A DNA stretch of 64,000 bases from a virus (Duplodnaviria > Caudoviricetes): positions 1,077-65,076 of the IMG/VR virus record IMGVR_UViG_3300045413_000192; one strand, written 5' to 3'. A program made the position numbers and the translations under genes. Shown in pieces: positions 14,099 through 52,294 of this stretch. The notes beneath the pieces are model-generated. The model did no database searches. It was not told where the DNA came from and worked only from the letters and a program-made list of their open reading frames with translations. Positions within the stretch are counted from its first letter, which is position 1. The number at the start of each line of letters is the position of its first letter.

Positions 14099-15064
14099 TC
14101 ACTCCATTACAAACAGCTTGTTTGCAACAGTTTGAGGCTGAGCTTGATTCAGAACACGCCAGGCGTTCTGGGGGTCGCGGGCCATAATCTCATTGAAATT
14201 ACCCCAGAAGTTTTCGGGAGCCTGGGGAGCAGCGGCAGCCGGAGGAGCGGGCAGCTGACCCAGTTGAGGCTGAGCCACAGCTTGGGTAGGATAGCCGCGA
14301 GTCTCAAGTTGAGTTTCGTTTTCATACACAGGATAGGGCCCTTCGGGACCGAAGAACTTCAACGTGTAATCGCTGAGTACATCGGGGTTGGTCAGAATCT
14401 CGTTGTATGCCAGGTTTTCCTGGTGCTCATTGACAGCGAAATTGGCGTAGCCGGTAATAGTATTAGCGGCGCGATTTCCCCACGCGACGGCGCTGTCCAG
14501 CATTTGCTCCAGGTTTAGAGCGTAGTTGTTCAGCAGAGCCGGCGCTTCGATCCCGAACGCGTCCATCACTTGGCGGGACTCCTGGCCCATTCCCACCAGA
14601 TCCGCGATTTGCTCCAAGGATGGAGTCGAGAAGGTTTGGGAATAGTTGGGCGAGGATTCCTGGCTGGGAGACCAGGTCAGCGGAGCCGATTGTTGCGTAA
14701 CTTGGCTGCTGGGTTGGCCGTAGTTGGCCGGGGTATACGCTGTCGGCGCTTGAGATTGTTGACCCTGGAACGGGGATTGGACTGGTGCGCTCAGCAGGTT
14801 CACTACCTTGTTGAACGCCGATTCCCACGGATTGTTCACCTGGGAGTCCGCCACCGGTTGGGATTGGGGGGCGTACTGAATAGGGGCTGATTGGTAGCTG
14901 GGGACTGCCTGAGGTACCGCTTGGGGGTAGCTGGTACCCACCTGATAAGCCACCGGTGCTTGAGCCGGAGCTGCCTGCGGTGCTGCCACCACGTAGCTGC
15001 TCGGAGCGACGGCCACTGGTGCTTGGCTCATCTGTGGGGTCGATTGGACGGTAGCGTCCTGCAT
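14099..15064 (-). CDS. Putative capsid scaffolding protein
   Basis: Q/P/A-rich N-terminus and helical C-terminus. AAGGAG SD. Lies between portal and MCP. Confidence 0.7.
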   Translation of the reverse strand: MQDATVQSTPQMSQAPVAVAPSSYVVAAPQAAPAQAPVAYQVGTSYPQAVPQAVPSYQSAPIQYAPQSQPVADSQVNNPWESAFNKVVNLLSAPVQSPFQGQQSQAPTAYTPANYGQPSSQVTQQSAPLTWSPSQESSPNYSQTFSTPSLEQIADLVGMGQESRQVMDAFGIEAPALLNNYALNLEQMLDSAVAWGNRAANTITGYANFAVNEHQENLAYNEILTNPDVLSDYTLKFFGPEGPYPVYENETQLETRGYPTQAVAQPQLGQLPAPPAAAAPQAPENFWGNFNEIMARDPQNAWRVLNQAQPQTVANKLFVME

Positions 15065-16817
15065 AACTCATCTCCTTTTGTAAGGCTTCTAAAGTGCGAT
15101 ACAGATATGGGGTCAAATCCAATCGCGGGTCCGCAGCCATCGGAAGATCCGGTGATTGCGGGTGGGGGGTCTGCATCATTCCTCCCACTAGGCGAGCGAA
15201 AGAAGAGTATGCACCCTGCAATTCGTTCACCATTCTGAACGGGAACCCAGATAGCATCTCGGCCCGTTCCTCATCCGTTTTTGACGGGAAGAGGTATTTC
15301 AGTGACTCAATGCTATCAACACCTAATTCTTGCAGATTTCGAACAACAATGGAGTTGTTCAGAATATCTTGCGTCGTATCTTCGTAAACAGGACCAAACC
15401 AACGCCATTGGATAGTAACGTCGCCATCCGGAATAAGACCTAAAACACCTGGCGGAATTTGTTGAGTCTTCAAGCAAGCCATCATGAGTTGCTTGACTTG
15501 ATCTTCAAACATACCCATGGCATCTTCGTAGGCCATTAAATCCTCAGGAGATGCAGTTTCTGAAAGTTCCAGGGGCTTTTCTAAACCTGCTGCTGCGGCA
15601 AGAGTATCGCGGAAAAGACGTTCTTCCTGAAAAATAATTAATTCCAAGCAACGGCAAACACCATACGTGTAAATAGAAAGTGCTTTTTTCTTGGATGTAG
15701 CAGAAACACGTCCAAAGAGAGATTTGTATTCCGTTGCTGTGACACCAGCGGAAATAGACAGTTCGTCAACACCACCCAACGCCGTACGAATTTCTTCGCG
15801 ATACTGACGAGCAAAGGAATTTTGGTCCCCGGTAATAGCGTCAGGAACAATGTAACCAACTCGGTCGTTTGGCTCCAGGTTTGCAATAACCCGTGGAACA
15901 CGCAGTTGACCATCAACTCCGCGATAAATGGGATCTGCTTTGAATCGTGATTGGCTTAACGCGCCTGCCCCAGTAAAGCCGGAGCTGGCTGCAATAGATG
16001 GACGTTGAACAACAGTTTCACCACCCGATTCCATCAAGTCCGTCTTGGGACGAGACGAAAGAAGTGTGGGGTTGCCAAAGAACTGTACGTTTTTACGCAT
16101 GGTGCGAACCATGTCGTCATGCGTGCAAATATGATTGGCTAAAGAGTCAAATTCACCAACTCCTTCCGTAGAAAAGCCCTTAGCATTATTGAAAATTTCA
16201 ACGCAAGGAATAAAACCAAGAGTATTTTTAAATGTTTTAGTGCGCCCTGGAACCGATTGATAATTTGTATCGAAAGAAATTTCACCTTCTGAGTGTGTTT
16301 CCTCGATTGTTTTACGTTTAATTGATAAGCGAATATAACGCTTAACGCCGCCACGTCCCATGCCAATCGGACCAGAGACATTGCTCATTTCAATGTCTTG
16401 CTGGAAGCCCATACCTTGACGAACCTTGTAGCTATAGATGATGACAACTTCGTCTAACTCACCGTCAATGTTGTAAAAACTTCTGTACTCATGCTTCCGG
16501 AAAAAGTACATCCGGTAATTATTTTGCGTTGGGCGCAAATAAAAAAGTCCTTGACCGTCGCACAGAAAATAATCCCAGATAGAATCCAGGCGCGTATCAA
16601 GCTGGTTGTATTTAATCACACGGTCGATAAAGTCTTTGCGCTGGTTGCCAAAGTTGTCTTGCGCAGGAAAAAATTCGACACCTTGACGGATGCCAAATAG
16701 CTTCATTTGTGCAAGATGTGCTGCAACAATGCCAGTATCAATCGCTGCTCCACCGTCTTTTTCAAGGTAGGAGTCAATAATTTCTTTGAGCCTGGCCTTT
16801 GCGTCCCCAGCCATCAA
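14463..16817 (-). CDS. Portal protein (C-terminal ~200 codons overlap the scaffold gene)
   Basis: Lies between terminase and MCP. Motifs NTLGFIPCVEIFN...GVGEFD and FFGNP, typical of SPP1-like portals. Confidence 0.8.
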   Translation of the reverse strand: MMAGDAKARLKEIIDSYLEKDGGAAIDTGIVAAHLAQMKLFGIRQGVEFFPAQDNFGNQRKDFIDRVIKYNQLDTRLDSIWDYFLCDGQGLFYLRPTQNNYRMYFFRKHEYRSFYNIDGELDEVVIIYSYKVRQGMGFQQDIEMSNVSGPIGMGRGGVKRYIRLSIKRKTIEETHSEGEISFDTNYQSVPGRTKTFKNTLGFIPCVEIFNNAKGFSTEGVGEFDSLANHICTHDDMVRTMRKNVQFFGNPTLLSSRPKTDLMESGGETVVQRPSIAASSGFTGAGALSQSRFKADPIYRGVDGQLRVPRVIANLEPNDRVGYIVPDAITGDQNSFARQYREEIRTALGGVDELSISAGVTATEYKSLFGRVSATSKKKALSIYTYGVCRCLELIIFQEERLFRDTLAAAAGLEKPLELSETASPEDLMAYEDAMGMFEDQVKQLMMACLKTQQIPPGVLGLIPDGDVTIQWRWFGPVYEDTTQDILNNSIVVRNLQELGVDSIESLKYLFPSKTDEERAEMLSGFPFRMVNELQGAYSSFARLVGGMMQTPHPQSPDLPMAADPRLDLTPYLYRTLEALQKEMSYAGRYRPIDPTDEPSTSGRRSEQLRGGSTAGSSGSSTGGLSGGYQLPPSGTSGSPQLPISPYSVRPPIPTGGGLPGEQSVGIGVQQGSEPAERTSPIPVPGSTISSADSVYPGQLRPTQQPSYATIGSADLVSQPGILAQLFPNLLDSILGANRGSGGNGPGVPPSDGRVRDRSAGSAEQLRSKPGANAGQRRRVGKSRR

Positions 16818-19632: not shown

Positions 19633-21159
19633 TTAGTAATCAATATGCAGTTGACCTTTTCTTGCAAGTCCTGTAACAAGCCAGACCAAGGCGTCGACAC
19701 AATCGTCGTGACCACTGACACCAAAATTAGTAAGCTCCTCAAACATTGTTGTGAAGTTTCGAAAACGATTAAAAATTATTTTGCGGTCTTCAAACATCCC
19801 CATAATGCCACGAAAACGTGCCAGTTTATCTGCACGGAATCCTTTGACTGGATGCCAAATTAAATTGTAAAGACCTTCGTTGTTAAGGCAAACGCGTTTG
19901 AAGTCGGCCTCAAGAGAGGCCTGGTATTGAACAGCTTCTGACCAAATGTCGCACGTTGAATAAGTAGGAAAATAATTGCCGTTATCATCACGTCCAATTA
20001 CAGACCAATCATTAAGCAATTCTTTAAGAGCATCCAGTTTTTCCAGGTTGCCCATAACACGAATGCGCCTGTAATCAATAATATGAATGCGATCTCCAAT
20101 GCGACCGCCCAGAATCATAACTGTGTAGTCATTCTTTTCTCTAGTGCCAGCGGAAAGATCCACACCAATACCAAGGGTGTCAAACTCCGTTGAAATCTCA
20201 GCTTTAACAATCAATTCAGGCGCCAAAGATAGTTCATTTTGACGAACAATTTGGTTCATGTACTGGAACGAAAAGGCAATTGGTGCCTGACGTTTTTTCT
20301 CTTTAAGATATTCCAATGACCACATCTCGGGCCAATATGACTGTTCTTCACCTGTTCTGGAATCATTGTTGATAGCAGAAAGAACAATCTGCATCCAATT
20401 ATTTTGCTCATTAAATGTTGTGGCATGAATATCGTCATGTCTAAAGCGCGTACCAAGGCAAATGGCACGAGCACCTTCAAACATAGTGGGGGCAATCACC
20501 GCGTTCCAGTTTTCCTGCATCTGTTTTCGGATGTCAGGATTAGAAATATCTGCCGCAGATTTAATTGCGTCATCAATCATGACCAGGTGAGAACGCTTGG
20601 AAGTCACTGAACCTTTAAGGCCTGCAGCGCAAAGCGTAAACTGCTCGTCACCAGTAGTGTCAATGCCTGCAAATTTATGATCAATAGACCAGTATTCATT
20701 GCTGGTCACGTTTTTCATTAGGCGAACAGTAGGAAAAACTTCTTGATACCGTTTGCTTTCAATGATGCGTTTAATGGTTGCCGATTTGGACCGTGCAATA
20801 TCAACCGTATAAGACAAGTAAAGAACTTGTAGTGGAAGTTTTGCTTGGGTGTGGATGCCAATAGCCCAGGCAGTCAGCAAACCAAGGACCGTTGATTTAG
20901 CAGAACCCCGTGGAGCAAGAAGATCAATGTTGGGGCCAGCAATTCTAATAAGGCAAGCGCTATCTTCATTTGTAATGAAATGGCGATGCCATTCTTTATG
21001 GTGTTCCGCCGGTGGTTTATCTGCAACGTACTCACAAAAATATGCAAAATCTTCCCGCGCTAGCGCCAAAGCATCTGCATTGCGTGGCGCACGGATTTGT
21101 TGGCGACGTGCCGCTGCCTTTGCATTACGACGATAGGCAAGATGCGTATAGCTAGGCAC
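19633..21159 (-). CDS. terL: Terminase large subunit
   Basis: Walker A-like LAPRGSAKST, Walker B LVMIDD, coupling motif GTR, RNase H-type GVDL..DYT and HDDCVDAL. Confidence 0.93.
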   Translation of the reverse strand: MPSYTHLAYRRNAKAAARRQQIRAPRNADALALAREDFAYFCEYVADKPPAEHHKEWHRHFITNEDSACLIRIAGPNIDLLAPRGSAKSTVLGLLTAWAIGIHTQAKLPLQVLYLSYTVDIARSKSATIKRIIESKRYQEVFPTVRLMKNVTSNEYWSIDHKFAGIDTTGDEQFTLCAAGLKGSVTSKRSHLVMIDDAIKSAADISNPDIRKQMQENWNAVIAPTMFEGARAICLGTRFRHDDIHATTFNEQNNWMQIVLSAINNDSRTGEEQSYWPEMWSLEYLKEKKRQAPIAFSFQYMNQIVRQNELSLAPELIVKAEISTEFDTLGIGVDLSAGTREKNDYTVMILGGRIGDRIHIIDYRRIRVMGNLEKLDALKELLNDWSVIGRDDNGNYFPTYSTCDIWSEAVQYQASLEADFKRVCLNNEGLYNLIWHPVKGFRADKLARFRGIMGMFEDRKIIFNRFRNFTTMFEELTNFGVSGHDDCVDALVWLVTGLARKGQLHIDY

Positions 21160-22404: not shown

Positions 22405-22428
22405 GGCGTCATGAAAATAACCTATAAA

Positions 22429-22608
22429 TCAGAAGTTGCTCATCATGGAAGCAAGGCCTTGGGCGAAAATATCGCGACGACCTTCGGTTGACTTTTGACG
22501 TTGTTGACGACCCTTGGAGGCCTCCAGGCGCTCAAGCAACTGTTCAAACTTATTGATGTCAAAGTAGTCATCACCGGCGCTTTGGCCAGCAGGAGCAGTG
22601 TAAGTCAT
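22429..22608 (-). CDS. 59-aa protein, tandem copy 2
   Basis: MTYTAPAGQSAGDDYFDINKFEQLLERLEASKGRQQRQKSTEGRRDIFAQGLASMMSNF. Confidence 0.75.
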   Translation of the reverse strand: MTYTAPAGQSAGDDYFDINKFEQLLERLEASKGRQQRQKSTEGRRDIFAQGLASMMSNF

Positions 22609-22624
22609 GAAAATAACCTATAAA

Positions 22625-22804
22625 TCAGAAGTTGCTCATCATGGAAGCAAGGCCTTGGGCGAAAATATCGCGACGACCTTCGGTTGACTTTTGACGTTGT
22701 TGACGACCCTTGGAGGCCTCCAGGCGCGACAATAGTTGTTCAAACTTATTGATGTCAAAGTAGTCATCACCGGCGCTTTGGCCAGCAGGTGCGGTGTAGG
22801 TCAT
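22625..22804 (-). CDS. 59-aa protein, tandem copy 1
   Basis: Same protein with one substitution (LLSRL). TATAAT -10 at 22827-22832. Confidence 0.75.
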   Translation of the reverse strand: MTYTAPAGQSAGDDYFDINKFEQLLSRLEASKGRQQRQKSTEGRRDIFAQGLASMMSNF

Positions 22805-28491: not shown

Positions 28492-31400
28492 TTAACGACG
28501 GCGACGTTTAGCTGCACGACGACCGGCTTGTGCCATCAATCGATTCATTTGATTGGAAAGCATTTGATCGTCAATTGTAAATTTCTCTGTTGTTCCGGGT
28601 GGCTCTACTCTAGCACGTTGGGCTTGACGAGCTGTTAATTCCATGTCAACATCAAGAGGTACCTGGGGACCTTGCAATACACTTTCAATATCACTGCCAA
28701 TGGTTTCATTAAAGTCATATTCAGCAATAGTTTGTGCAATTTCTTCCGCAGGAGAAGGACGATCCATCGCCTGAAGAGCGCGTCTACCCTGAGACATAAC
28801 GGGACCAACGCGCGCTTGCTCTCTAGAACCACGGAGAAAAGTTGCTGCCTGCCTACTTAACTCTGCTGGATCAGCTCCAAGTTGATTAGAAAGGTCCAAA
28901 ACAGCTTGATTAAAAGCTGCAATACGCATTGGTTTTCCTGATGTCTGCGTGTAATCAAGAACAAATGCAGCAAGACGTTTGCCGCCAATAACTTCTGGGG
29001 TCAAGGCAAGCGTCATGGTTCGTCCAGTATCCTTGAGCTGCGTTACAGAACGCATCTCAACACTAGACGGATCTTGCATCTCGGTAAATACAACCTTCTG
29101 AACAGGTAAATTAGTTAGCTGAATACCACTAGGAACATTCCGACGTGGACGTTCAGACTGCCTTGCGCCAAGTCCGTAACGTTCTCCTAGACCAAAATCT
29201 TTTTCTGGTTCCTGCATCCGTATACGTGACTTTTCAGAGGTTTGCGTCAGGGTGTTTGCAACTGTTAAGGCTTCACGCAGCACAGGATTTTTACTTGGGC
29301 CACCCATGAACTCAAAGCCTTTTTCTCGACCCAAATAAATAGCGTCATCAATAACTTTGATGCGTTGCCCCGTAATTTCCTCTAAAGCGTTATTAACACC
29401 TTGCAGGAAAAGATAATTATTCTTTGCCGTCAAACGAGTATCAGACGGATTAAGAGTAGTAGGTGCTACAGCTAATTCTGTATCGCCAAAACCAAGAATT
29501 TGAGCACGTATCTCTCCTGTTTCTTTGTCGACATACGTTTTGTTTTCGGGAACCAAATAACGAGTTTGTTTAAAATACTTGGCACCCTCTTGTCCCTGCT
29601 CGTCAATTAAAGTATGTTCTTGAAGGAGGGGTTGCCCGCGCATTGGCATACCTTTGGAATCACGTACAATTGGAAATAAGAGTTGATTGCGAATTGCTTG
29701 AGAAAGAGTTACATTAGAAACAATAGTCTCTCCCCTGGAATTACGGCGAACAACCTGATCAACCACAAAGTTTGGGTTTAATGCAGTCTTAACAAGTTTG
29801 TTACCACGAACAGTAACTTGTACTTCAAGATTTTCACCTTTTTCCAAGGCGGCAATTCGAGATTCTGCTCCTGTAATTAATTTTGCATTGACGTTATTTG
29901 CAAGTCGATTATAAGTATTTGTTGCTTCGTATACAGATGTAAAGTTTTGCCCTGTTGCAGGATTGGCAAACAAAAAATTACTATAGTTTGGATCAGCACT
30001 TAAATACGTTTCTAAACCGGGATTTGCCTTCAGCATTAGTGCATCCACGACAAGATAAGGAGTGTTGTTGCGAGAAAGCTTTACGTTACCTTTTTCCAAG
30101 GCATCGTAAGGATCACGGAACAAAGGCCGTGGTTGCACACTTAAATCAACATCGTCTCTTCCACGGGCACGCTCAAGCATGCCTTCGATTTCCGCGTTTG
30201 TTTCTGTTGGTTTTAAACCAAGTTCTTTTCTGCGTTGTCTAATTGCTTTCCAGTCTTTAGAAGAAATTTGCCCACTTCCAATAGAACCAAGTTCTTTAAG
30301 GCCACCAATGGCATATCCAACTCCTTGAGATTTATTAACATTTTCAGGGCCAGAGGCGTTAACACCAGGTAAGTTAACAAAACCAGCCACATCTTCACGT
30401 GGCACAAAAGCAACTGCTTGACCAATCTCAGCACCAATGCCTGTACCAGCAACAGCTTCACTAGATTGCGTCGCACCGATATCCGATTTTCTAATTAAAG
30501 TTTTAGTATCAGGATCAAAGAAAAGAGGTTCCAAATCGCTACGTGTTCTACGACTAGAAGTTCTGGGTCCCGAAACCAAAACAAGTTCTTCTCCTCCCTT
30601 TTTAGAAATTGAAACAAGTTGTGTGGGCATTGATTCAGTGCCCGTATAACCAAAGCCTTTGGTGCTTGGCGGTTGATACTCGCCAGCTATGCCACCACTA
30701 ATAAGATAACGTTTAATTGAATCAGCGTCATCAAATTTGAGTAAGTTTTCTTTAACGTGTTGAGTAGCAACACGATGAATGTCTGGATCAATTTCAATAT
30801 CGTTAAAATTACCTGTACTTAACGCACGTACAGTAGAAGAGGAAGACATGCCTTCTATTAGCATATTGGCAAGTTGCCCAGGAAAAACTTTTTCATCTCC
30901 CAGGTTTTTAGCAAGTATTTCTTTATTTAAAAGGCCAGACTCATCAAATAAAATTTCTTTCCATTCTTGAGTGATAGGTGAAGGCGATTGCTTTTGTTTA
31001 CGTTGTTTTGCTTCTCTAAGTTTTTGCGCGGCAAGTTCGCCCGCAGCGGCACTAACTTCCCCCTCTGGAACCATGCTGAAACCTTCTGGTAGCGGCGCAT
31101 CAGTTTCCGCTAGGCCCAGGGTGGCTCTTGCTTGGTTTAAAGCAAGTTGACGACGGGTCTTATTCCGGTTTAATTTGGCAACCATTGAGTCGCCAACAGG
31201 AAGCACGGAGCCAGCCGCATCTGTTAGGGGAGAAGCTTCTCTTTCAAAAACAATCGGCAAACTAACAGGCGATGTTTTACCAGTACGCGTAGTGTCAGTA
31301 TCACGCTGCATTTCGCGCAGTTGACGACCAGTAAATTGATCTTCTCCTGATTCAACCGCGTTAATCTGTTGGTTTGCAACAACAGGTGTATTATTTATTT

Positions 31401-32109
31401 GAATTGTAGTTAAATCTTCAGATGGTGCAACAGCGCCAGTTGATTCAACGTACGACCTAGGCGAAAAGCCCTCCGCTTCTTTTTCACGGCGCGACTGAGC
31501 AAGAAAATTTTTAGCGCCTGCTTTTTCTTTGCCTTCAATACCTTGAACAACCCTGGTTTGAAATTTATTTTCTTTATCAATTTCCCGCTGTTCTTCTAAA
31601 ATCTCATTTAATAACTCACCTGCTTTTACTTCAGCGATAATTTCTTGCTCAATACCGGTTAATTCAGCAAAAGAACCAGGCTGACGGCGCGGCAGTGGCG
31701 AAGTTTGTCCTGTAAGCGGTTGACGCAAAACTGCCGGCTCCTGTGGAGTCGGTAAATCACGTACCAAACTGCCAACCGCACCAAAATCTTGAGTTTGCGC
31801 GGCAGTTTGAGCCCTTGCTACCGTTTCGGGAAGAATTGTTTCTACCTTAGGTGCGGCAACTGAAGGTTTGGCACGTAAACCACGACGTGCCGCAAGAGTT
31901 GCTAAACCTGCACCAACGAGTGTGGCTCCTACTGCCAGTGCACTGCCAAAGTCAAACCCCTCATTTTCTTTTGGCGCAGCGTTTCGAAGTTGACCACGGC
32001 GAAATGCCACGACTTCTGGAGCAAGTTTTGCACGTTCTTCCGGATCATCAGGAAGCTGCGTTCCAGTGGCACGGCTATAAGCGTAGAAATCAGCCGGAGA
32101 AATCGCCAT
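28492..32109 (-). CDS. Large hypothetical protein (1205 aa), probably virion internal
   Basis: First gene of the late arm, with a single hydrophobic segment near the N-terminus. Confidence 0.7.
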   Translation of the reverse strand: MAISPADFYAYSRATGTQLPDDPEERAKLAPEVVAFRRGQLRNAAPKENEGFDFGSALAVGATLVGAGLATLAARRGLRAKPSVAAPKVETILPETVARAQTAAQTQDFGAVGSLVRDLPTPQEPAVLRQPLTGQTSPLPRRQPGSFAELTGIEQEIIAEVKAGELLNEILEEQREIDKENKFQTRVVQGIEGKEKAGAKNFLAQSRREKEAEGFSPRSYVESTGAVAPSEDLTTIQINNTPVVANQQINAVESGEDQFTGRQLREMQRDTDTTRTGKTSPVSLPIVFEREASPLTDAAGSVLPVGDSMVAKLNRNKTRRQLALNQARATLGLAETDAPLPEGFSMVPEGEVSAAAGELAAQKLREAKQRKQKQSPSPITQEWKEILFDESGLLNKEILAKNLGDEKVFPGQLANMLIEGMSSSSTVRALSTGNFNDIEIDPDIHRVATQHVKENLLKFDDADSIKRYLISGGIAGEYQPPSTKGFGYTGTESMPTQLVSISKKGGEELVLVSGPRTSSRRTRSDLEPLFFDPDTKTLIRKSDIGATQSSEAVAGTGIGAEIGQAVAFVPREDVAGFVNLPGVNASGPENVNKSQGVGYAIGGLKELGSIGSGQISSKDWKAIRQRRKELGLKPTETNAEIEGMLERARGRDDVDLSVQPRPLFRDPYDALEKGNVKLSRNNTPYLVVDALMLKANPGLETYLSADPNYSNFLFANPATGQNFTSVYEATNTYNRLANNVNAKLITGAESRIAALEKGENLEVQVTVRGNKLVKTALNPNFVVDQVVRRNSRGETIVSNVTLSQAIRNQLLFPIVRDSKGMPMRGQPLLQEHTLIDEQGQEGAKYFKQTRYLVPENKTYVDKETGEIRAQILGFGDTELAVAPTTLNPSDTRLTAKNNYLFLQGVNNALEEITGQRIKVIDDAIYLGREKGFEFMGGPSKNPVLREALTVANTLTQTSEKSRIRMQEPEKDFGLGERYGLGARQSERPRRNVPSGIQLTNLPVQKVVFTEMQDPSSVEMRSVTQLKDTGRTMTLALTPEVIGGKRLAAFVLDYTQTSGKPMRIAAFNQAVLDLSNQLGADPAELSRQAATFLRGSREQARVGPVMSQGRRALQAMDRPSPAEEIAQTIAEYDFNETIGSDIESVLQGPQVPLDVDMELTARQAQRARVEPPGTTEKFTIDDQMLSNQMNRLMAQAGRRAAKRRRR

Positions 32110-32210: not shown

Positions 32211-32423
32211 ATGGATGCCGGTACGCGCCAAAAACGGGTCGAAGCACTTGAGGCAATTAAAAATAAAGCCGTTGACATGGCTAAAGAAGGGCGGGATTCT
32301 TTAGAAGTACGCGATTTTGTAACTTCAGCTAAAAAAGAATTGGCTTATGAGTTGCCTGATCAAGAAGCTTTTAACAAAGCAATGAATGCAACGCTCGCAT
32401 ACAAGGCAAAGAAAGGAAAATAA
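32211..32423 (+). CDS. Hypothetical helical protein
   Basis: 70-aa ORF followed by a terminator. Confidence 0.65.
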   Translation: MDAGTRQKRVEALEAIKNKAVDMAKEGRDSLEVRDFVTSAKKELAYELPDQEAFNKAMNATLAYKAKKGK

Positions 32424-32474: not shown

Positions 32475-32649
32475 GTGTAAAAACTTGGGGAAAGTATTTG
32501 AATTTACTACATTATTGCACTTTTACTTTAACAAAAGCGCCTTTATAAGGCCAAATAGGGTACAAAATTACCTGACGCTTCCACTATTACCCGTCTGATT
32601 GCGATTATGGGGAGAAAAAAAATAATAGGGGTGTAGGTACGTGAAGTAT

Positions 32650-32690
32650 CGGGGGCTGCGCATCCGTACCACGCAGAGTTCCATTGCATT
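32650..32690 (+). ncRNA. Leader pseudoknot family P-I, copy 1 (copy 2 at 33244-33285)
   Basis: GGGGGCTGCGCATCC-N-ACGCAGAGTTCCATTGCATT repeated at an identical distance from the ATG. Confidence 0.55.
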
Positions 32691-32697
32691 CAGTTCA

Positions 32698-32904
32698 ATG
32701 TTTACTGTGACTTTCCTTGATTATGGTTGTCCTGACTTTGGAGGGCAAGAGTATTACGAAGACGAGAAGTTGTTTTCTAACTGGCAACAAGCCCAGGAGT
32801 TTATCAACAGCCTTGAAGATTATGAATTCATAGCAGCTGCATATCACTTCAGCTGTAATGCCTGTTACGGTTTGTTTTGCTTTGAAGACGAGATTCCATT
32901 CTGA
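32698..32904 (+). CDS. Small acidic early protein ending EDEIPF
   Basis: ATG 32698 follows the leader element. Its TGA stop lies inside the following tRNA-like element. Confidence 0.65.
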   Translation: MFTVTFLDYGCPDFGGQEYYEDEKLFSNWQQAQEFINSLEDYEFIAAAYHFSCNACYGLFCFEDEIPF

Positions 32905-32944
32905 GTAACAGGCGTGATGCCGGGGGATCGAATCCCCCACTCAG
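32901..32944 (+). ncRNA. tRNA-mimic element type A, copy 1
   Basis: CTGAGT/ACTCAG stem stacked on GGGGG-ATCGAAT-CCCCC, plus a GGC-GTGAT-GCC side hairpin. Confidence 0.7.
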
Positions 32945-32947
32945 TAT

Positions 32948-32974
32948 TGCCCACTGTGGAGATGGGCACCACAC
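32948..32974 (+). ncRNA. TGCC pseudoknot family P-II (other copies 34055-34080, 34441-34467, 34725-34751)
   Basis: TGCCY/RGGCA stem whose loop GYGG pairs with downstream CCRC. Covaries across copies. Confidence 0.65.
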
Positions 32975-32992
32975 TACGTTCAATTCAATTCA

Positions 32993-33154
32993 ATGGAAGA
33001 ATTACTTCGTCAAATTGAAGTTGCTGAGCGTGAAGCCGATGAAGCAGTCGGTGATCTTGATCGACACAATGCTGAACGTAAAGTTCAATGGCTTCACTTC
33101 TGTCTCGAGACATATAAGCAACGTCACTACTTTGGTGATTTATTTGCTGAGTAA
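32993..33154 (+). CDS. Small early protein (53 aa)
   Basis: MEELLRQIEVAEREADEAVGDLDRHNAERKVQWLHFCLETYKQRHYFGDLFAE*. Its TAA stop lies inside the tRNA-like element. Confidence 0.65.
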   Translation: MEELLRQIEVAEREADEAVGDLDRHNAERKVQWLHFCLETYKQRHYFGDLFAE

Positions 33155-33190
33155 CAGGCGTGATGCCGGGGGATCGAATCCCCCACTCAG
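33147..33190 (+). ncRNA. tRNA-mimic element type A, copy 2
   Basis: Identical 44-nt copy of 32901-32944. Confidence 0.7.
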
Positions 33191-33292
33191 TGCCAGGTGC
33201 AATGCCTGGCTATTGTGGTTGCAATTATAGATTAGTTGTGATATAGGGGGCTGCGCATCCTAACAACGCAGAGTTCCATTGCATTTTGTACC

Positions 33293-33529
33293 ATGACTGA
33301 CCGCATCGAGCGTTTTGAGCAAGCAGCGAACATGCTGGTTGCAGGCAAGAAGGTATCTGTTGCCGTTAAGGAGTTACCGCAAGGTAACGTGCAAGCTTGG
33401 CTTGCCGAGTTGAAAGGTTACGTCATTTTTGGACACACAGATCCAGGTGATGAAGTTACCTATCGAGTGTACGTTACTGTCAAGGAAGGCAAAGCAGTTG
33501 CTTCGGCAAAGCTTGTCTACGTTGATTGA
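33293..33529 (+). CDS. Small early protein
   Basis: ATG follows P-I copy 2. Confidence 0.65.
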   Translation: MTDRIERFEQAANMLVAGKKVSVAVKELPQGNVQAWLAELKGYVIFGHTDPGDEVTYRVYVTVKEGKAVASAKLVYVD

Positions 33530-33662
33530 CGATTGTACTTTCCCCTGGGCAACCAGGGGTTCCTACAGCCCTCAAATAGTTTGATGCTCCGTATCGCGCC
33601 TTAAATTGGGTCAAGCTCCCCGCTACAACAGCGGTCAAGAGAAGACTGTGTCCTGTGATACT

Positions 33663-33687
33663 CGTCAAGCTGGACGTTAAACGCAGC
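33663..33687 (+). ncRNA. CGTC pseudoknot family P-III (other copies 37110-37136, 39874-39900, 48076-48102, 48989-49015, 52247-52275)
   Basis: YGTC-NN-S2-(T)-GACR-YTAAAC-S2'. Both stems covary across copies. Confidence 0.7.
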
Positions 33688-33764
33688 AGGCAACTTAGGT
33701 GATAGGTCACCAGGTGTTCTTGGCATCCACACTTCAGTAGCGTTTGTTTTCTGACAACTGACTC

Positions 33765-33811
33765 TTGCACTGAGGGGCTTCGGCCCTTCTCTGCAGGACT
33801 CAACATCCTGC
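33765..33811 (+). ncRNA. Bistable TGCA switch element (other copies 34000-34052, 34988-35040, 35315-35387, 35877-35949)
   Basis: The TGCAGNN strand can pair with either an upstream or a downstream complementary strand. All three strands covary. Confidence 0.65.
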
Positions 33812-33830
33812 TCACATTTTATTTGACACC

Positions 33831-33998
33831 ATGACTGCACTAAACATTCGGAAGAACATGGGTGAACTTGTCCAGTTAGTTGGACAAATCATACCATCCA
33901 ACATGAAAGATAAGCTGCACGACAAAGTATTTGAATACCGTATTCGTGCAGCTGCTTTACTAATGCCTAAAGGATCAAGCATTCATATCGAAGGCTGA
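33831..33998 (+). CDS. Small early protein (55 aa)
   Basis: MTALNIRKNMGELVQ...KGSSIHIEG*, flanked by two switch elements. Confidence 0.6.
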   Translation: MTALNIRKNMGELVQLVGQIIPSNMKDKLHDKVFEYRIRAAALLMPKGSSIHIEG

Positions 33999-34054
33999 TT
34001 CCTGCATCAAGCCCTGTCATTGCACAGGGTTTCTTGCAGGATTTATTCCTGCGC
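33991..34054 (+). repeat. 64-nt exact direct repeat (second copy 34979-35042)
   Basis: AAGGCTGATTCCTGCATCAAGCCCTGTCATTGCACAGGGTTTCTTGCAGGATTTATTCCTGCGC occurs twice. Confidence 0.9.
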
Positions 34055-34094
34055 GCCTCCAGCGGAGATAGGCACCGCACACATGGAGGGATCC

Positions 34095-34397
34095 ATGCAA
34101 GTCCACGTTCTCAGGCAGTATCACCCTGATTACTGCATTGATGACAAAGCTATTGCTTACTACGCCTCTAGGCGTAAAGCAGAAGCTAAGGCTGTAGAGT
34201 TATCAACTCGGCAAGCCAAGGAAGAAGAACTGGATTGGATTGCCAATCCTTGCGAATGCGGCGAACGCGATTGTTATCTCCGTGACAAGTTCTTTTACAA
34301 ATGGTCGGTGGAAAATCTTGATCTTGTTGAGCTTTCTATGCGGGAGCTTATGAAGATTGAGTTGGCTGATGCCGACGAAAATGAGTTCAGCAGCTGA
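34095..34397 (+). CDS. Early hypothetical protein
   Basis: GGAGG SD before ATG 34095. Contains a CECGERDC cysteine cluster. Confidence 0.65.
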   Translation: MQVHVLRQYHPDYCIDDKAIAYYASRRKAEAKAVELSTRQAKEEELDWIANPCECGERDCYLRDKFFYKWSVENLDLVELSMRELMKIELADADENEFSS

Positions 34398-34438
34398 TCC
34401 GTCAAAGCGGGTCCGGAGGTGCAAACCCTCCGGCAGTT
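34392..34438 (+). ncRNA. tRNA-mimic element type B, copy 1 (copy 2 at 34676-34722)
   Basis: ARCTG/CAGTT stem, CCGT-CAAA-GCGG hairpin and a 7-bp stem with TGCAAAC loop. The stem covaries between copies. Confidence 0.65.
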
Positions 34439-34483
34439 ATTGCCTCCAGCGGAGATAGGCACCGCACTGCCGTTGTTAGAAAC

Positions 34484-34681
34484 ATGGATTGCAATTATGC
34501 AATACCTGCAACCTATTGCGGAGATCGTTTAGTTCCGATTGAAACAGTGCAAGCTGTTATTGCGGAGCTTTATCAAATGGCACTGTCTTTTACTTCTGAT
34601 GAAGGGCCTCCAGGGCCAGAAGAACTTGGTCAAGCTGTTGTGTGGCTTGATGAGCATTGCGCTCTTCGCATGAAAAACTGA
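34484..34681 (+). CDS. Small early protein
   Basis: Flanked by RNA modules. Confidence 0.6.
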   Translation: MDCNYAIPATYCGDRLVPIETVQAVIAELYQMALSFTSDEGPPGPEELGQAVVWLDEHCALRMKN

Positions 34682-34765
34682 TCCGTCAAAGCGGGTGGAC
34701 AGATGCAAACCCTGTCCCAGTTATTGCCTCCAGCGGAGATGGGCACCGCACAACAGGAGATTCCT

Positions 34766-34942
34766 ATGAAAATCCAAATTGAACAAGACATCACTGGAAC
34801 TGGAACTTATATCTGGGGACTGGAGGATGGCCCAGAACATATTGATAAGTTCTCTGGATTTGCCGATACTCTTGGTGAATGTTTTGAAAAGATCATCCGT
34901 CATCAAACTATAAATGCTATGGGATATGTGACAAGCACATGA
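34766..34942 (+). CDS. Small early protein
   Basis: CAGGAG SD before ATG 34766. Confidence 0.6.
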   Translation: MKIQIEQDITGTGTYIWGLEDGPEHIDKFSGFADTLGECFEKIIRHQTINAMGYVTST

Positions 34943-35070
34943 ACTTGCACTTGATTGGAAAAGGCAAGTTGATTATCAAAGGCTGATTCCTGCATCAAGC
35001 CCTGTCATTGCACAGGGTTTCTTGCAGGATTTATTCCTGCGCTACACCACACGACACCAACTGGATTCCC

Positions 35071-35313
35071 ATGACTCCTAAAGTTGTTGAACGTTTATTG
35101 ACACAGGACGCTCGCTTGCTTGCCAGGAGAGATTCCCCTGTCATTGACCAAGACATTGAGTGCGACCGTCAGGCTGCACTTGATTTGTTCTTTGCTTGGC
35201 AAGATGGACTGGCTGAGTTCCAAGAACTTATGCCGTTCGTCGCCATTCTTCAACGCAAAGTTGATCTCAACCGTGCGTTGTTGAAGTATGAGCAAGAACA
35301 ACTCTTGGCCTGA
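35071..35313 (+). CDS. Small early protein
   Basis: MTPKVVERLL..., after a switch element. Confidence 0.6.
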   Translation: MTPKVVERLLTQDARLLARRDSPVIDQDIECDRQAALDLFFAWQDGLAEFQELMPFVAILQRKVDLNRALLKYEQEQLLA

Positions 35314-37051: not shown

Positions 37052-37164
37052 CCTACGGGATTAGTACACACGTACTTGGTATCACCTCGGATTGGGGTGG
37101 TATCACCTTCGTCCTGAGTATGACGTTAAACTGCTCAACACCTTGTACTACACCAATTCAAACT

Positions 37165-39868: not shown

Positions 39869-39931
39869 TTCATCGTCCTGGGCATGACGTTAAACTGCCT
39901 ACCACACCACATCAACACCACACATCACACC

Positions 39932-41725: not shown

Positions 41726-41943
41726 CTCACAACTACACTGATGATCAACTGCTTGCCATGGCAATGGCAAACATTGGTGAATTCATTCACGACAATTCTC
41801 CGCATTATGTTTTAATCGAAGAAGATCCACGTAACGAAGAAGACTACGATACTTGGGCTTATGGCACTGAGCCGTTGCCCCAAGATCATACTTGGCGTTC
41901 AACTTCCATTGAAGTTGATGTAAGTCCAAGTGAGCCCGAGTAG
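41722..41943 (+). CDS. Small acidic protein
   Basis: MTHNYTDD.... Its stop lies within the tRNA. Confidence 0.6.
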   Translation: MTHNYTDDQLLAMAMANIGEFIHDNSPHYVLIEEDPRNEEDYDTWAYGTEPLPQDHTWRSTSIEVDVSPSEPE

Positions 41944-42009
41944 CCCAACGGAAGAGGCAAACGACTTAAAATCGTTCCAGCGTGAGTTCAAATCTCACCT
42001 CGGGTACCA
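41934..42009 (+). tRNA. trnL: tRNA-Leu (anticodon UAA), 76 nt, short variable loop, encoded CCA
   Basis: GCCCGAG/CTCGGGT acceptor, AACGA-CTTAAAA-TCGTT anticodon arm, GTGAG-TTCAAAT-CTCAC T arm and ACCA end. Confidence 0.9.
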
Positions 42010-48070: not shown

Positions 48071-48122
48071 CGCCTTGTCCCAGGCATGACACTAAACTGC
48101 TTTCCACCCTACTTCTGTACCA

Positions 48123-52228: not shown

Positions 52229-52294
52229 CAGCCCTGGTAGACTAACCGTCCTGGTCATGACGTTAAACTGACCAGTCCATCAACACACCATTCC

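Follow-up and report, generated by a model that had tools for sequence, protein, structure and literature searches.

The stretch of DNA analyzed here, hereafter the window, covers 64,000 of the 65,076 bases of the IMG/VR virus record IMGVR_UViG_3300045413_000192 (Caudoviricetes), a lake cyanophage sequence rated 82% complete. Its subject is a 27-nucleotide (nt) motif with two interleaved stems, hereafter the knot, that recurs four times at the heads of small genes. The sole relative found in the phage collection was Synechococcus phage S-EIV1, which matched 11% of a 4-kb query at 76% identity. Structural and packaging genes occupy the minus strand up to position 32109, where this module ends, facing the early region, in a 1205-amino-acid (aa) open reading frame (ORF; 28492-32109) with no Pfam or PHROG match. 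On the plus strand, a run of small ORFs begins at 32211 and the replication genes come after it (Table 1); no RNA polymerase was matched among the larger window proteins scanned. A consensus scan of the window returned four plus-strand copies of the motif against none in 100 dinucleotide-preserving shuffles, and the whole 65,076-base record yielded four forward matches, none in reverse and none with a reversed-pattern control.

Read from 5' to 3', the motif comprises the first strand of stem 1 (positions 1-5), a variable 3-nt loop 1, the first strand of stem 2 (9-12), the loop 2 sequence AGAT, the second strands of stem 1 (17-21) and stem 2 (22-25), and a final AC; the linker between the two second strands is 0 nt long. 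Within the window, stem 1 occurs as TGCCC/GGGCA, TGCCT/AGGCA and TGCCT/GGGCA, and stem 2 as GTGG/CCAC or GCGG/CCGC. An initial annotation had reported four copies in which one stem 1 pair appears as C-G, U-A and U-G and stem 2 in these two forms, and both the copies and their differences are as it described. Since three of the four copies are near-identical, and two of these lie within a duplicated 74-nt block (repeat D5), the window by itself amounts to one independent comparison. The covariation evidence from the four copies alone is thus weak, whereas the family-wide data make it strong.

Table 1. Positions of the knot copies, the elements that precede them and the genes that follow, with other genes of the window (SD, Shine-Dalgarno sequence).
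Feature	Position	Strand	Remarks
Knot copy 1	32948-32974	+	Stem 1 32948-32952/32964-32968; stem 2 32956-32959 (GTGG)/32969-32972 (CCAC); loop AGAT 32960-32963
Knot copy 2	34054-34080	+	First base C not T (CGCC start), pair 1-21 unformed; preceded by long bulged hairpin, not tRNA-like element
Knot copy 3	34441-34467	+	Stem 1 TGCCT/AGGCA; stem 2 GCGG/CCGC
Knot copy 4	34725-34751	+	Stem 1 TGCCT/GGGCA with U-G wobble; stem 2 GCGG/CCGC
tRNA-like element type A before copy 1	32901-32945	+	Acceptor-like stem 32901-32906/32939-32944; T-arm-like hairpin 32922-32938; stop TGA 32902-32904 in stem; T 32945 at discriminator position
tRNA-like element type A, second, identical (repeat D8)	33147-33191	+	Followed by hairpin 33192-33210 (loop TGCAATG), no pseudoknot
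Bulged hairpin and TTTATT before copy 2 (repeat D4)	34000-34047	+	Outer stem 34000-34006/34035-34041; inner stem 34012-34017/34024-34029
tRNA-like element type B before copy 3	34392-34440	+	Acceptor-like stem 34392-34396/34434-34438; stop TGA 34395-34397; small hairpin 34399-34410; T-arm-like hairpin 34413-34433 (7 bp, loop TGCAAAC); 2-nt linker 34439-34440
tRNA-like element type B before copy 4 (repeat D5)	34676-34724	+	Stop TGA 34679-34681; T-arm-like stem with compensatory changes relative to element before copy 3
53-aa ORF after copy 1	32993-33154	+	18-nt C/A/T-rich leader, no SD
ORF after copy 2	34095-34397	+	Starts 14 nt after motif; alternative in-frame ATG 34083 (2 nt)
65-aa ORF after copy 3	34484-34681	+	16-nt leader
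ORF after copy 4	34766-34942	+	14-nt leader AACAGGAGATTCCT with SD
Virion protein	14463-16817	-	
Terminase large subunit	19633-21159	-	
PcfJ-like gene	39884	+	Replication region
ThyX	43624	+	Replication region
GP88	44314	+	Replication region
Family A DNA polymerase	45410	+	Replication region
SSB	48123	+	Replication region

For the family-wide survey, IMG/VR was scanned with positions 9-27 only (GYGGAGATRGGYRCCRCAC), leaving positions 1-5 unconstrained. The 27-nt motif was present in at least 118 IMG/VR stretches, with at least 163 instances. Among the matches listed, which hold 138 unique viral instances, stem 1 (positions 1-5 against 17-21) is paired at all five positions in 125 and at four of five in a further 8. 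TGCCY/RGGCA alternates there with TACCY/RGGTA, pair 5-17 being C-G, U-A or U-G, while pair 10-24 of stem 2 is C-G in 116 instances, U-A in 19, U-G in 2 and C-A in 1. The control was a search of 596 Gb of bacterial genomes with the same pattern, for which approximately 140 chance hits were estimated. Stem 1 is fully paired in just two of the 117 unique matches on bacterial contigs, one of which carries the whole phage module, and pair 10-24 is scattered (C-G 46, U-G 33, U-A 21, C-A 17).

For a second sample, the anchor was not the motif itself but the tRNA-like element found upstream of it (described below), so that stem 2 variants invisible to the first pattern were taken in. It added GCAG/CTGC, GAGG/CCTC, GCCG/CGGC, AGGG/CCCT, GCGC/GCGC, GCAGG/CCTGC and GCTGG/CCAGC, making nine fully complementary variants in all when GCGG/CCGC and GTGG/CCAC are included; several of these share one contig with canonical copies. 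In a MAFFT alignment of 81 modules, 96.6% of cells are paired, a level attained in 0 of 500 shuffles, which give 81.0%; the covariation score of 0.460 compares with 0.156 for shuffled and at most 0.115 for slid partners. These figures are not probabilities, because the family members are related to one another and many entered the sample by way of a pattern. Six alignment rows with a 5-bp stem 2 are misaligned and count there against the structure. Two of the five pairs of stem 1 (GC 56/AU 24; CG 43/UA 23/UG 14/other 1) and three of the four pairs of stem 2 (among them CG 61/UA 12/GC 2/AU 1 and GC 73/AU 5/CG 1) change on both sides. Stronger arguments for the stems than the shuffles are the control on genome contigs and the occurrence of variants within single contigs.

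The cells that depart from Watson-Crick pairing are nearly all U-G when read on the plus strand. Since U-G is common and C-A almost absent (the single instance among the matches listed), the structure belongs to the plus-sense RNA. We conclude that both stems are real RNA helices of plus sense, and the double covariation first proposed from four copies extends, as compensatory changes in two interleaved stems, across the family. Conservation is not confined to the helices: the unpaired AGAT, A21 and 3' AC are nearly invariant in the 81-module alignment, and the three connecting segments hardly vary in length from one family member to the next. At the gathering threshold, Rfam 15 assigns no family to the motif and yields only a tRNA-Leu at 41934 in the whole window; in E-value mode the best matches to 32600-35200 and 34385-34490 have E = 1.2 to 9.9, far under gathering scores. 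A weak match to Mu-gpT-DE over copy 4 was discounted, its 15.8 bits (E = 3) falling far short of the gathering score of 49.

Most family members have, 2-3 nt before the motif, a tRNA-like element that resembles the top half of a tRNA: its acceptor-like stem is combined with a small hairpin and with a T-arm-like hairpin whose loop has 7 nt. Type A elements (32901 and 33147 in the window) carry the T arm GGGGG-ATCGAAT-CCCCC and type B elements (34392 and 34676) a variable T stem of 7 bp with the loop TGCAAAC; further types carry the canonical TTCGATT loop. All stems of the element covary in the 81-module alignment. The T-like stem has 7 bp in 160 of 184 unique type B elements; added together, acceptor and T stems give 12 bp in 106 of these elements and 11-13 bp in 148. 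The acceptor/T minihelix of tRNA has 12 bp. Acceptor stem, 7-nt-loop T arm and combined length of about 12 bp are thus those of a t-element-like mimic of the tRNA top half. The element is not itself recognized as a tRNA, as ARAGORN and the Rfam tRNA model call only the tRNA-Leu at 41934 in the window and Rfam gives no tRNA match at E up to 10 in 32600-35200. That tRNA-Leu (anticodon TAA) is phage-encoded at 41934-42009 on the plus strand, directly 3' of the PcfJ-like gene.

The tRNA-like element is tied to the genes on either side of it. The TGA or TAA in the 5' strand of the acceptor-like stem is where the upstream ORF truly ends: 40 or more open codons precede it in frame in 145 of 175 elements of type B and in 36 of 39 of type A, against 58 and 13, respectively, for the better of the other two frames. 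On the downstream side, 180 of the 184 unique type B elements precede a structure (78 pseudoknots and 102 hairpins), mostly starting 2-3 nt past the acceptor-like stem. Motifs without a tRNA-like element follow intrinsic terminators (contigs L072 and L090), a conserved hairpin element (L007) or a coremin-like knot (L048). The bulged-hairpin element that precedes copy 2 in the window is repeated at 34974-35049, with no pseudoknot after it. The motif is also carried by contigs of 64-67% GC, namely L115 (GC 0.67, three copies) and L054 (GC 0.64), in which an 8-bp hairpin with a 7-nt loop stands in place of the tRNA-like element; hence it is not confined to S-EIV1-like genomes.

For analysis of the leaders, copies were filtered for an intact stem 1 core and stem 2, leaving 159 unique copies. 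The placement just 5' of a start codon that had been noted for the window is general: in 146 of the 159, an ORF of 35 codons or more begins no further than 45 nt away. The distance from knot to start codon has a median of 14 nt (interquartile range 14-16) and is 12-16 nt in 114 of the 146; in the 20 cases at 0-6 nt, inspection of the leaders indicated mostly an in-frame ATG picked in the 5' arm of a hairpin between SD and start codon. The start codon is ATG in 73, GTG in 69 and TTG in 4, an unusually high share of GTG. An SD is present in 81 of the 146 leaders, and in 72 of these 81 the start codon is base-paired within a small hairpin and covaries with its 5' arm (CATGG..CCATG and CACGG..CCGTG), CAT accompanying ATG and CAC accompanying GTG. 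At copy 2 this hairpin joins CATGG (34082-34086) to CCATG (34093-34097) and includes the start codon. The remaining 65 leaders are without SD, and those inspected are C/A-rich.

The knot is interchangeable with simpler structures. Behind the tRNA-like element, a plain hairpin that also begins TTGCC or TTACC is found in 102 of the 184 type B modules, with a covarying stem and a class-specific loop (ACTGA/ACCGA or AATCCC-like). The proteins encoded downstream of 232 modules (105 with a knot, 122 with a hairpin and 5 lacking a structure) were clustered. Of the 66 clusters obtained, 19 have three or more members, and in 11 of these 19 the same gene is headed by a knot in some phages and by a hairpin in others; the hairpin sub-classes used in this clustering are rough, the split between knot and hairpin is not. 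This swap at orthologous genes, together with the adjoining upstream tRNA-like element, is the context that most constrains function.

A stable structure that opens each leader, right after a message-ending signal and near the ribosome-binding site without covering it, can be read as a 5' cap. With about even confidence, therefore, we regard the knot as a 5'-proximal structural cap, which, once tRNA-like processing had divided a long early transcript, would shield each cistron and insulate it. We infer that host RNA polymerase would transcribe the small early genes as a long polycistronic RNA, in which the tRNA-like element at the end of each upstream gene would act as a signal for host tRNA-processing enzymes. 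The precedent for reading this element as a cut signal comes from plant mitochondria, whose t-elements are reported to direct the RNase Z and RNase P cuts that make 5' and 3' ends of mRNAs, some of them lying within the end of a reading frame (nad6, ccmC) (PMC1920247). Those are likewise acceptor-plus-T-arm mimics of tRNA inside mRNAs and, with the mitochondrial tRNA punctuation model, match the upstream partner of the knot; unlike them, the phage elements have no D or anticodon arm, are followed after 2-3 nt by a dedicated structure, and are putative sites of cleavage. RNase Z, acting just past the discriminator position, would be the most plausible cutter because the upstream ORF would keep both its stop codon and a structured 3' end, whereas the stop codon would be lost to RNase P.

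The downstream fragment would then start 1-2 nt before stem 1, so that the knot would form the very start of the 5' untranslated region of the next gene. Structure near a 5'-monophosphate end could hinder 5'-end-dependent decay by RNase J and RNase E, which cyanobacteria are described as possessing and which both favor 5'-monophosphate ends. It could also keep the ribosome-binding region, 12-16 nt downstream, from pairing with upstream sequence. In Escherichia coli and Bacillus subtilis, 5'-terminal stem-loops do hinder 5'-end-dependent decay, examples being the hairpin in the ompA 5' untranslated region of the former and the 5' stem-loops that block RNase J1 in the latter. These stabilizers resemble the phage arrangement in that the structure lies a few nt from the RNA 5' end, just upstream of the ribosome-binding site, and in that stem-loops substitute for one another; the phage element differs in having two interleaved stems and conserved loops, and in a 5' end proposed to arise by processing next to a tRNA-like element. 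A further comparison is offered by the early region of phage T7, which has RNase III processing sites. In both phages structured intercistronic signals would split a long early transcript into separately stable messages, although the signal of the present phage resembles a tRNA and not a long duplex, and its protective structure sits 5' on the downstream message. Support for the cap also comes from the contexts without a tRNA-like element, since terminator, hairpin element and coremin-like knot alike place the motif at the start of a new message unit.

Several points weigh against a cap. The start codon follows at a spacing (12-16 nt in 114 of 146 copies) that is tighter than shielding alone would demand and that suggests a connection with the ribosome, and a purely steric block does not explain why the unpaired AGAT, A21 and 3' AC are near-invariant. 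Nine base pairs are few for halting a processive exonuclease unless topology helps; in our geometric model (below), moreover, the stems could not stack as in a classical H-type pseudoknot and may not both form at once. An RNase P cut 5' of the tRNA-like element would take away the upstream stop codon, so that only some tRNA-processing routes would be sensible. Additionally, the signature described for RNase E of Synechocystis, A at -3 and U at +2 (PMC8682795), does not fit the consensus linker CAGTTAT/TGCC, making RNase E a possible cutter but not a favored one.

A role in translation control has real scope, given the conserved loops and the fixed spacing; it ranks second after the cap, and we nevertheless hold it to be unlikely. 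Here the knot, bordering the ribosome-binding region on its 5' side, would serve for docking or as an operator and be recognized by the 30S subunit, by protein S1 or by an RNA-binding protein of host or phage. Such a partner would account for the constant distance to the start codon (median 14 nt, interquartile range 14-16) and for unpaired bases that scarcely vary; the hairpin classes keep loops of their own (ACTGA/ACCGA, AATCCC), as if each had its own reader, and the folding of the start codon into a hairpin in 72 of 81 SD leaders suggests regulated initiation. It would be hard pressed, however, to accommodate the replacement of the knot by unrelated hairpins at orthologous genes in 11 of 19 clusters. 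A phage-specific protein would also have to travel along with a motif that occurs in contigs from 41% to 67% GC, and no candidate binding protein was seen among the larger window proteins scanned.

The geometry of the fold was considered with an ideal A-form helix built from fibre parameters. Pair 1-21 is dispensable, the first base being A or C in window copy 2, L011, L115 and others (in L054 the pair is C-G), and the linker between the stems is consequently at most 1 nt. In the model, crossing the shallow groove of a stem 1 of 4-5 bp needs 18.8-21.8 Å, which is beyond the reach of 0-1 nt and excludes a classical coaxial H-type pseudoknot; the linker was rightly singled out as atypical in the initial annotation. 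The motif does share with H-type pseudoknots the interleaved a-b-a'-b' order of covarying stems, but not a loop 3 long enough for coaxial stacking. In the other stacking, in which the 3' strand of stem 1 continues into stem 2, loop 2 would cross the deep groove of stem 1 easily (10.4 Å for 5 bp), and the 3-nt loop 1 would have to stretch approximately 27 Å over nine base pairs. On this model, either the fold would be non-classical or the stems would form in turn.

Other local assignments were considered and rejected. A hairpin CTCC-AGC-GGAG, present in minimum-free-energy folds of copies 2-4, is not kept with the other loop 1 sequences of the family. Pairing of stem 2 with the GCGG of the type B tRNA-like element is contradicted by the invariance of that hairpin while stem 2 varies. 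The GGAG inside the knot is not a credible SD, being absent from the GCAGAGAT and GCCGAGAT variants and lying approximately 30 nt from the starts in the window.

If the 3' strand of stem 1 does run straight into stem 2, the topology would be ring-like: loop 1 would arch over the exit of the 5' strand and the 5' end would be held in a ring. It is tempting to speculate, by analogy and only tentatively, that the cap is a minimal exonuclease-resistant RNA (xrRNA) of the bacterial world, in which a 5' end enclosed in a 27-nt ring would mechanically stall RNase J and perhaps impede 5' sensing by RNase E. The ring-forming xrRNAs of plant and insect-borne RNA viruses, a class treated in PMC10520033, are similarly small, and in them, too, sequence 3' of a stem folds back to pair with the loop of that stem. 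Conversely, the knot has no sequence or secondary-structure homology to them and no Rfam match, and the nuclease would be RNase J rather than Xrn1. Were it true, the knot would be a prokaryotic counterpart of viral xrRNAs, and the smallest known.

The same model leaves some space for a switch between two alternative hairpins that form at different times, stem 1 arising, for example, on the free message and stem 2 after removal of the 5' strand or with a ribosome close by. Covariation supports each stem and not their joint formation, and ideal A-form geometry excludes the coaxial classical fold while demanding a loop 1 of some 27 Å in the other stacking. We nonetheless find alternative hairpins improbable. 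The stems share no bases, so that the sequence forces no exclusivity; each alone would be weak (stem 1 having 5 bp and an 11-nt loop, stem 2 having 4 bp and a 9-nt loop); and the near-constant lengths of the connecting segments are those expected of one compact fold.

Two further explanations are poorly compatible with the data. That the motif acts as DNA, as a promoter, a recombination site or the boundary of a mobile gene cassette, is suggested by its nature as a multi-copy intergenic repeat flanking small cassette-like genes, by 27-mers that are nearly identical across diverged phages and by its occasional position after an intrinsic terminator, where a promoter would be expected. We consider this highly improbable, given that the changes preserve pairing and the exceptions are wobbles that pair only as plus-strand RNA (U-G 14 against 1 other at one stem 1 pair; C-A 1 of 138 at pair 10-24), that contexts without a tRNA-like element have no conserved sequence upstream of the motif, and that a scan for sigma-70-type promoters found no excess (10 found against 11.0 expected).

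Among known pseudoknots, the preQ1-I riboswitch and that of the T4 gene 32 leader are likewise very small and placed in 5' leaders near the ribosome-binding site, but have a loop 3 of several nt and serve one gene or pathway, the preQ1-I type being marked by an A-rich loop 3 and by association with queuosine genes; here loop 3 is 0-1 nt, many unrelated genes lie downstream and hairpins act as substitutes. The metabolite sensor hinted at initially, a compact preQ1-I-like aptamer controlling the ribosome-binding site, is therefore the least probable of all and hardly credible despite its similar size, pseudoknot topology, conserved loop bases and location, as several copies per genome precede diverse, unrelated small ORFs, plain hairpins interchange with the knot, SD and start codon lie outside it, 12-16 nt downstream, and no Rfam riboswitch family is matched even at E up to 10 (106-base query).

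We found no published description of the motif in the literature on S-EIV1, on tRNA-like elements in cyanophages or on the processing of polycistronic phage transcripts. The text of a 2023 catalogue of 10,006 candidate viral RNAs names nothing similar, and its supplementary tables may contain the motif (PMC10690425). If the reading as a 5' cap holds, a widespread lineage of freshwater cyanophages would assemble its early messages from standard parts, namely a tRNA-like cut signal, a 5' cap, a short leader and a gene. Such a scheme is known from mitochondria and has been re-invented in synthetic biology as ribozyme-plus-hairpin insulators; for phages, no account of it came up in the literature searched. 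The knot may provide a compact stabilizer or insulator part for cyanobacterial engineering, and its unusually small size, sequence-defined nature and loop lengths off the textbook make it attractive for structure determination.

Other repeated elements were observed in the window. A second, different family of pseudoknots (repeat D3) occurs on the plus strand at 37109-37141, 39873-39905, 48075-48107 and 52246-52278, with a similar structure at 33663-33690. It has a stem CGTC/GACG whose loop pairs with sequence past a conserved TTAAAC linker, and by eye the partners change together in the four copies (TGAG/CTCA, GGCA/TGCC, GCA/TGC and TGGTCA/TGACCA). Its core, GACGTTAAAC, matches the coremin xrRNA core of plant viruses as given in PMC6546385 and PMC10520033. 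The D3 knot heads later (replication) genes, and the 27-nt knot the first early genes. A tandem duplication of 196 nt, with copies 95% identical, lies in the minus-strand structural region (22408-22799). Scattered pieces from related strains that match the repeated elements were present in sequencing run X1 (share 0.05, probably DNA, contigs).

A conserved 54-nt element (GGGGGCTGCGCATCC..ACGCAGAG) with a CTGCG/CGCAG hairpin lies directly upstream of start codons at 32647-32700 and 33242-33295 on the plus strand. It recurs in L001 (at approximately 6830), L007 and L052, standing directly before the 27-nt knot in L007, and could be a promoter or another leader structure. Finally, approximately 300 nt without an obvious plus-strand ORF (33530-33830) separate two small genes; with several hairpins and one coremin-like element, this region may be a non-coding RNA or a long leader.

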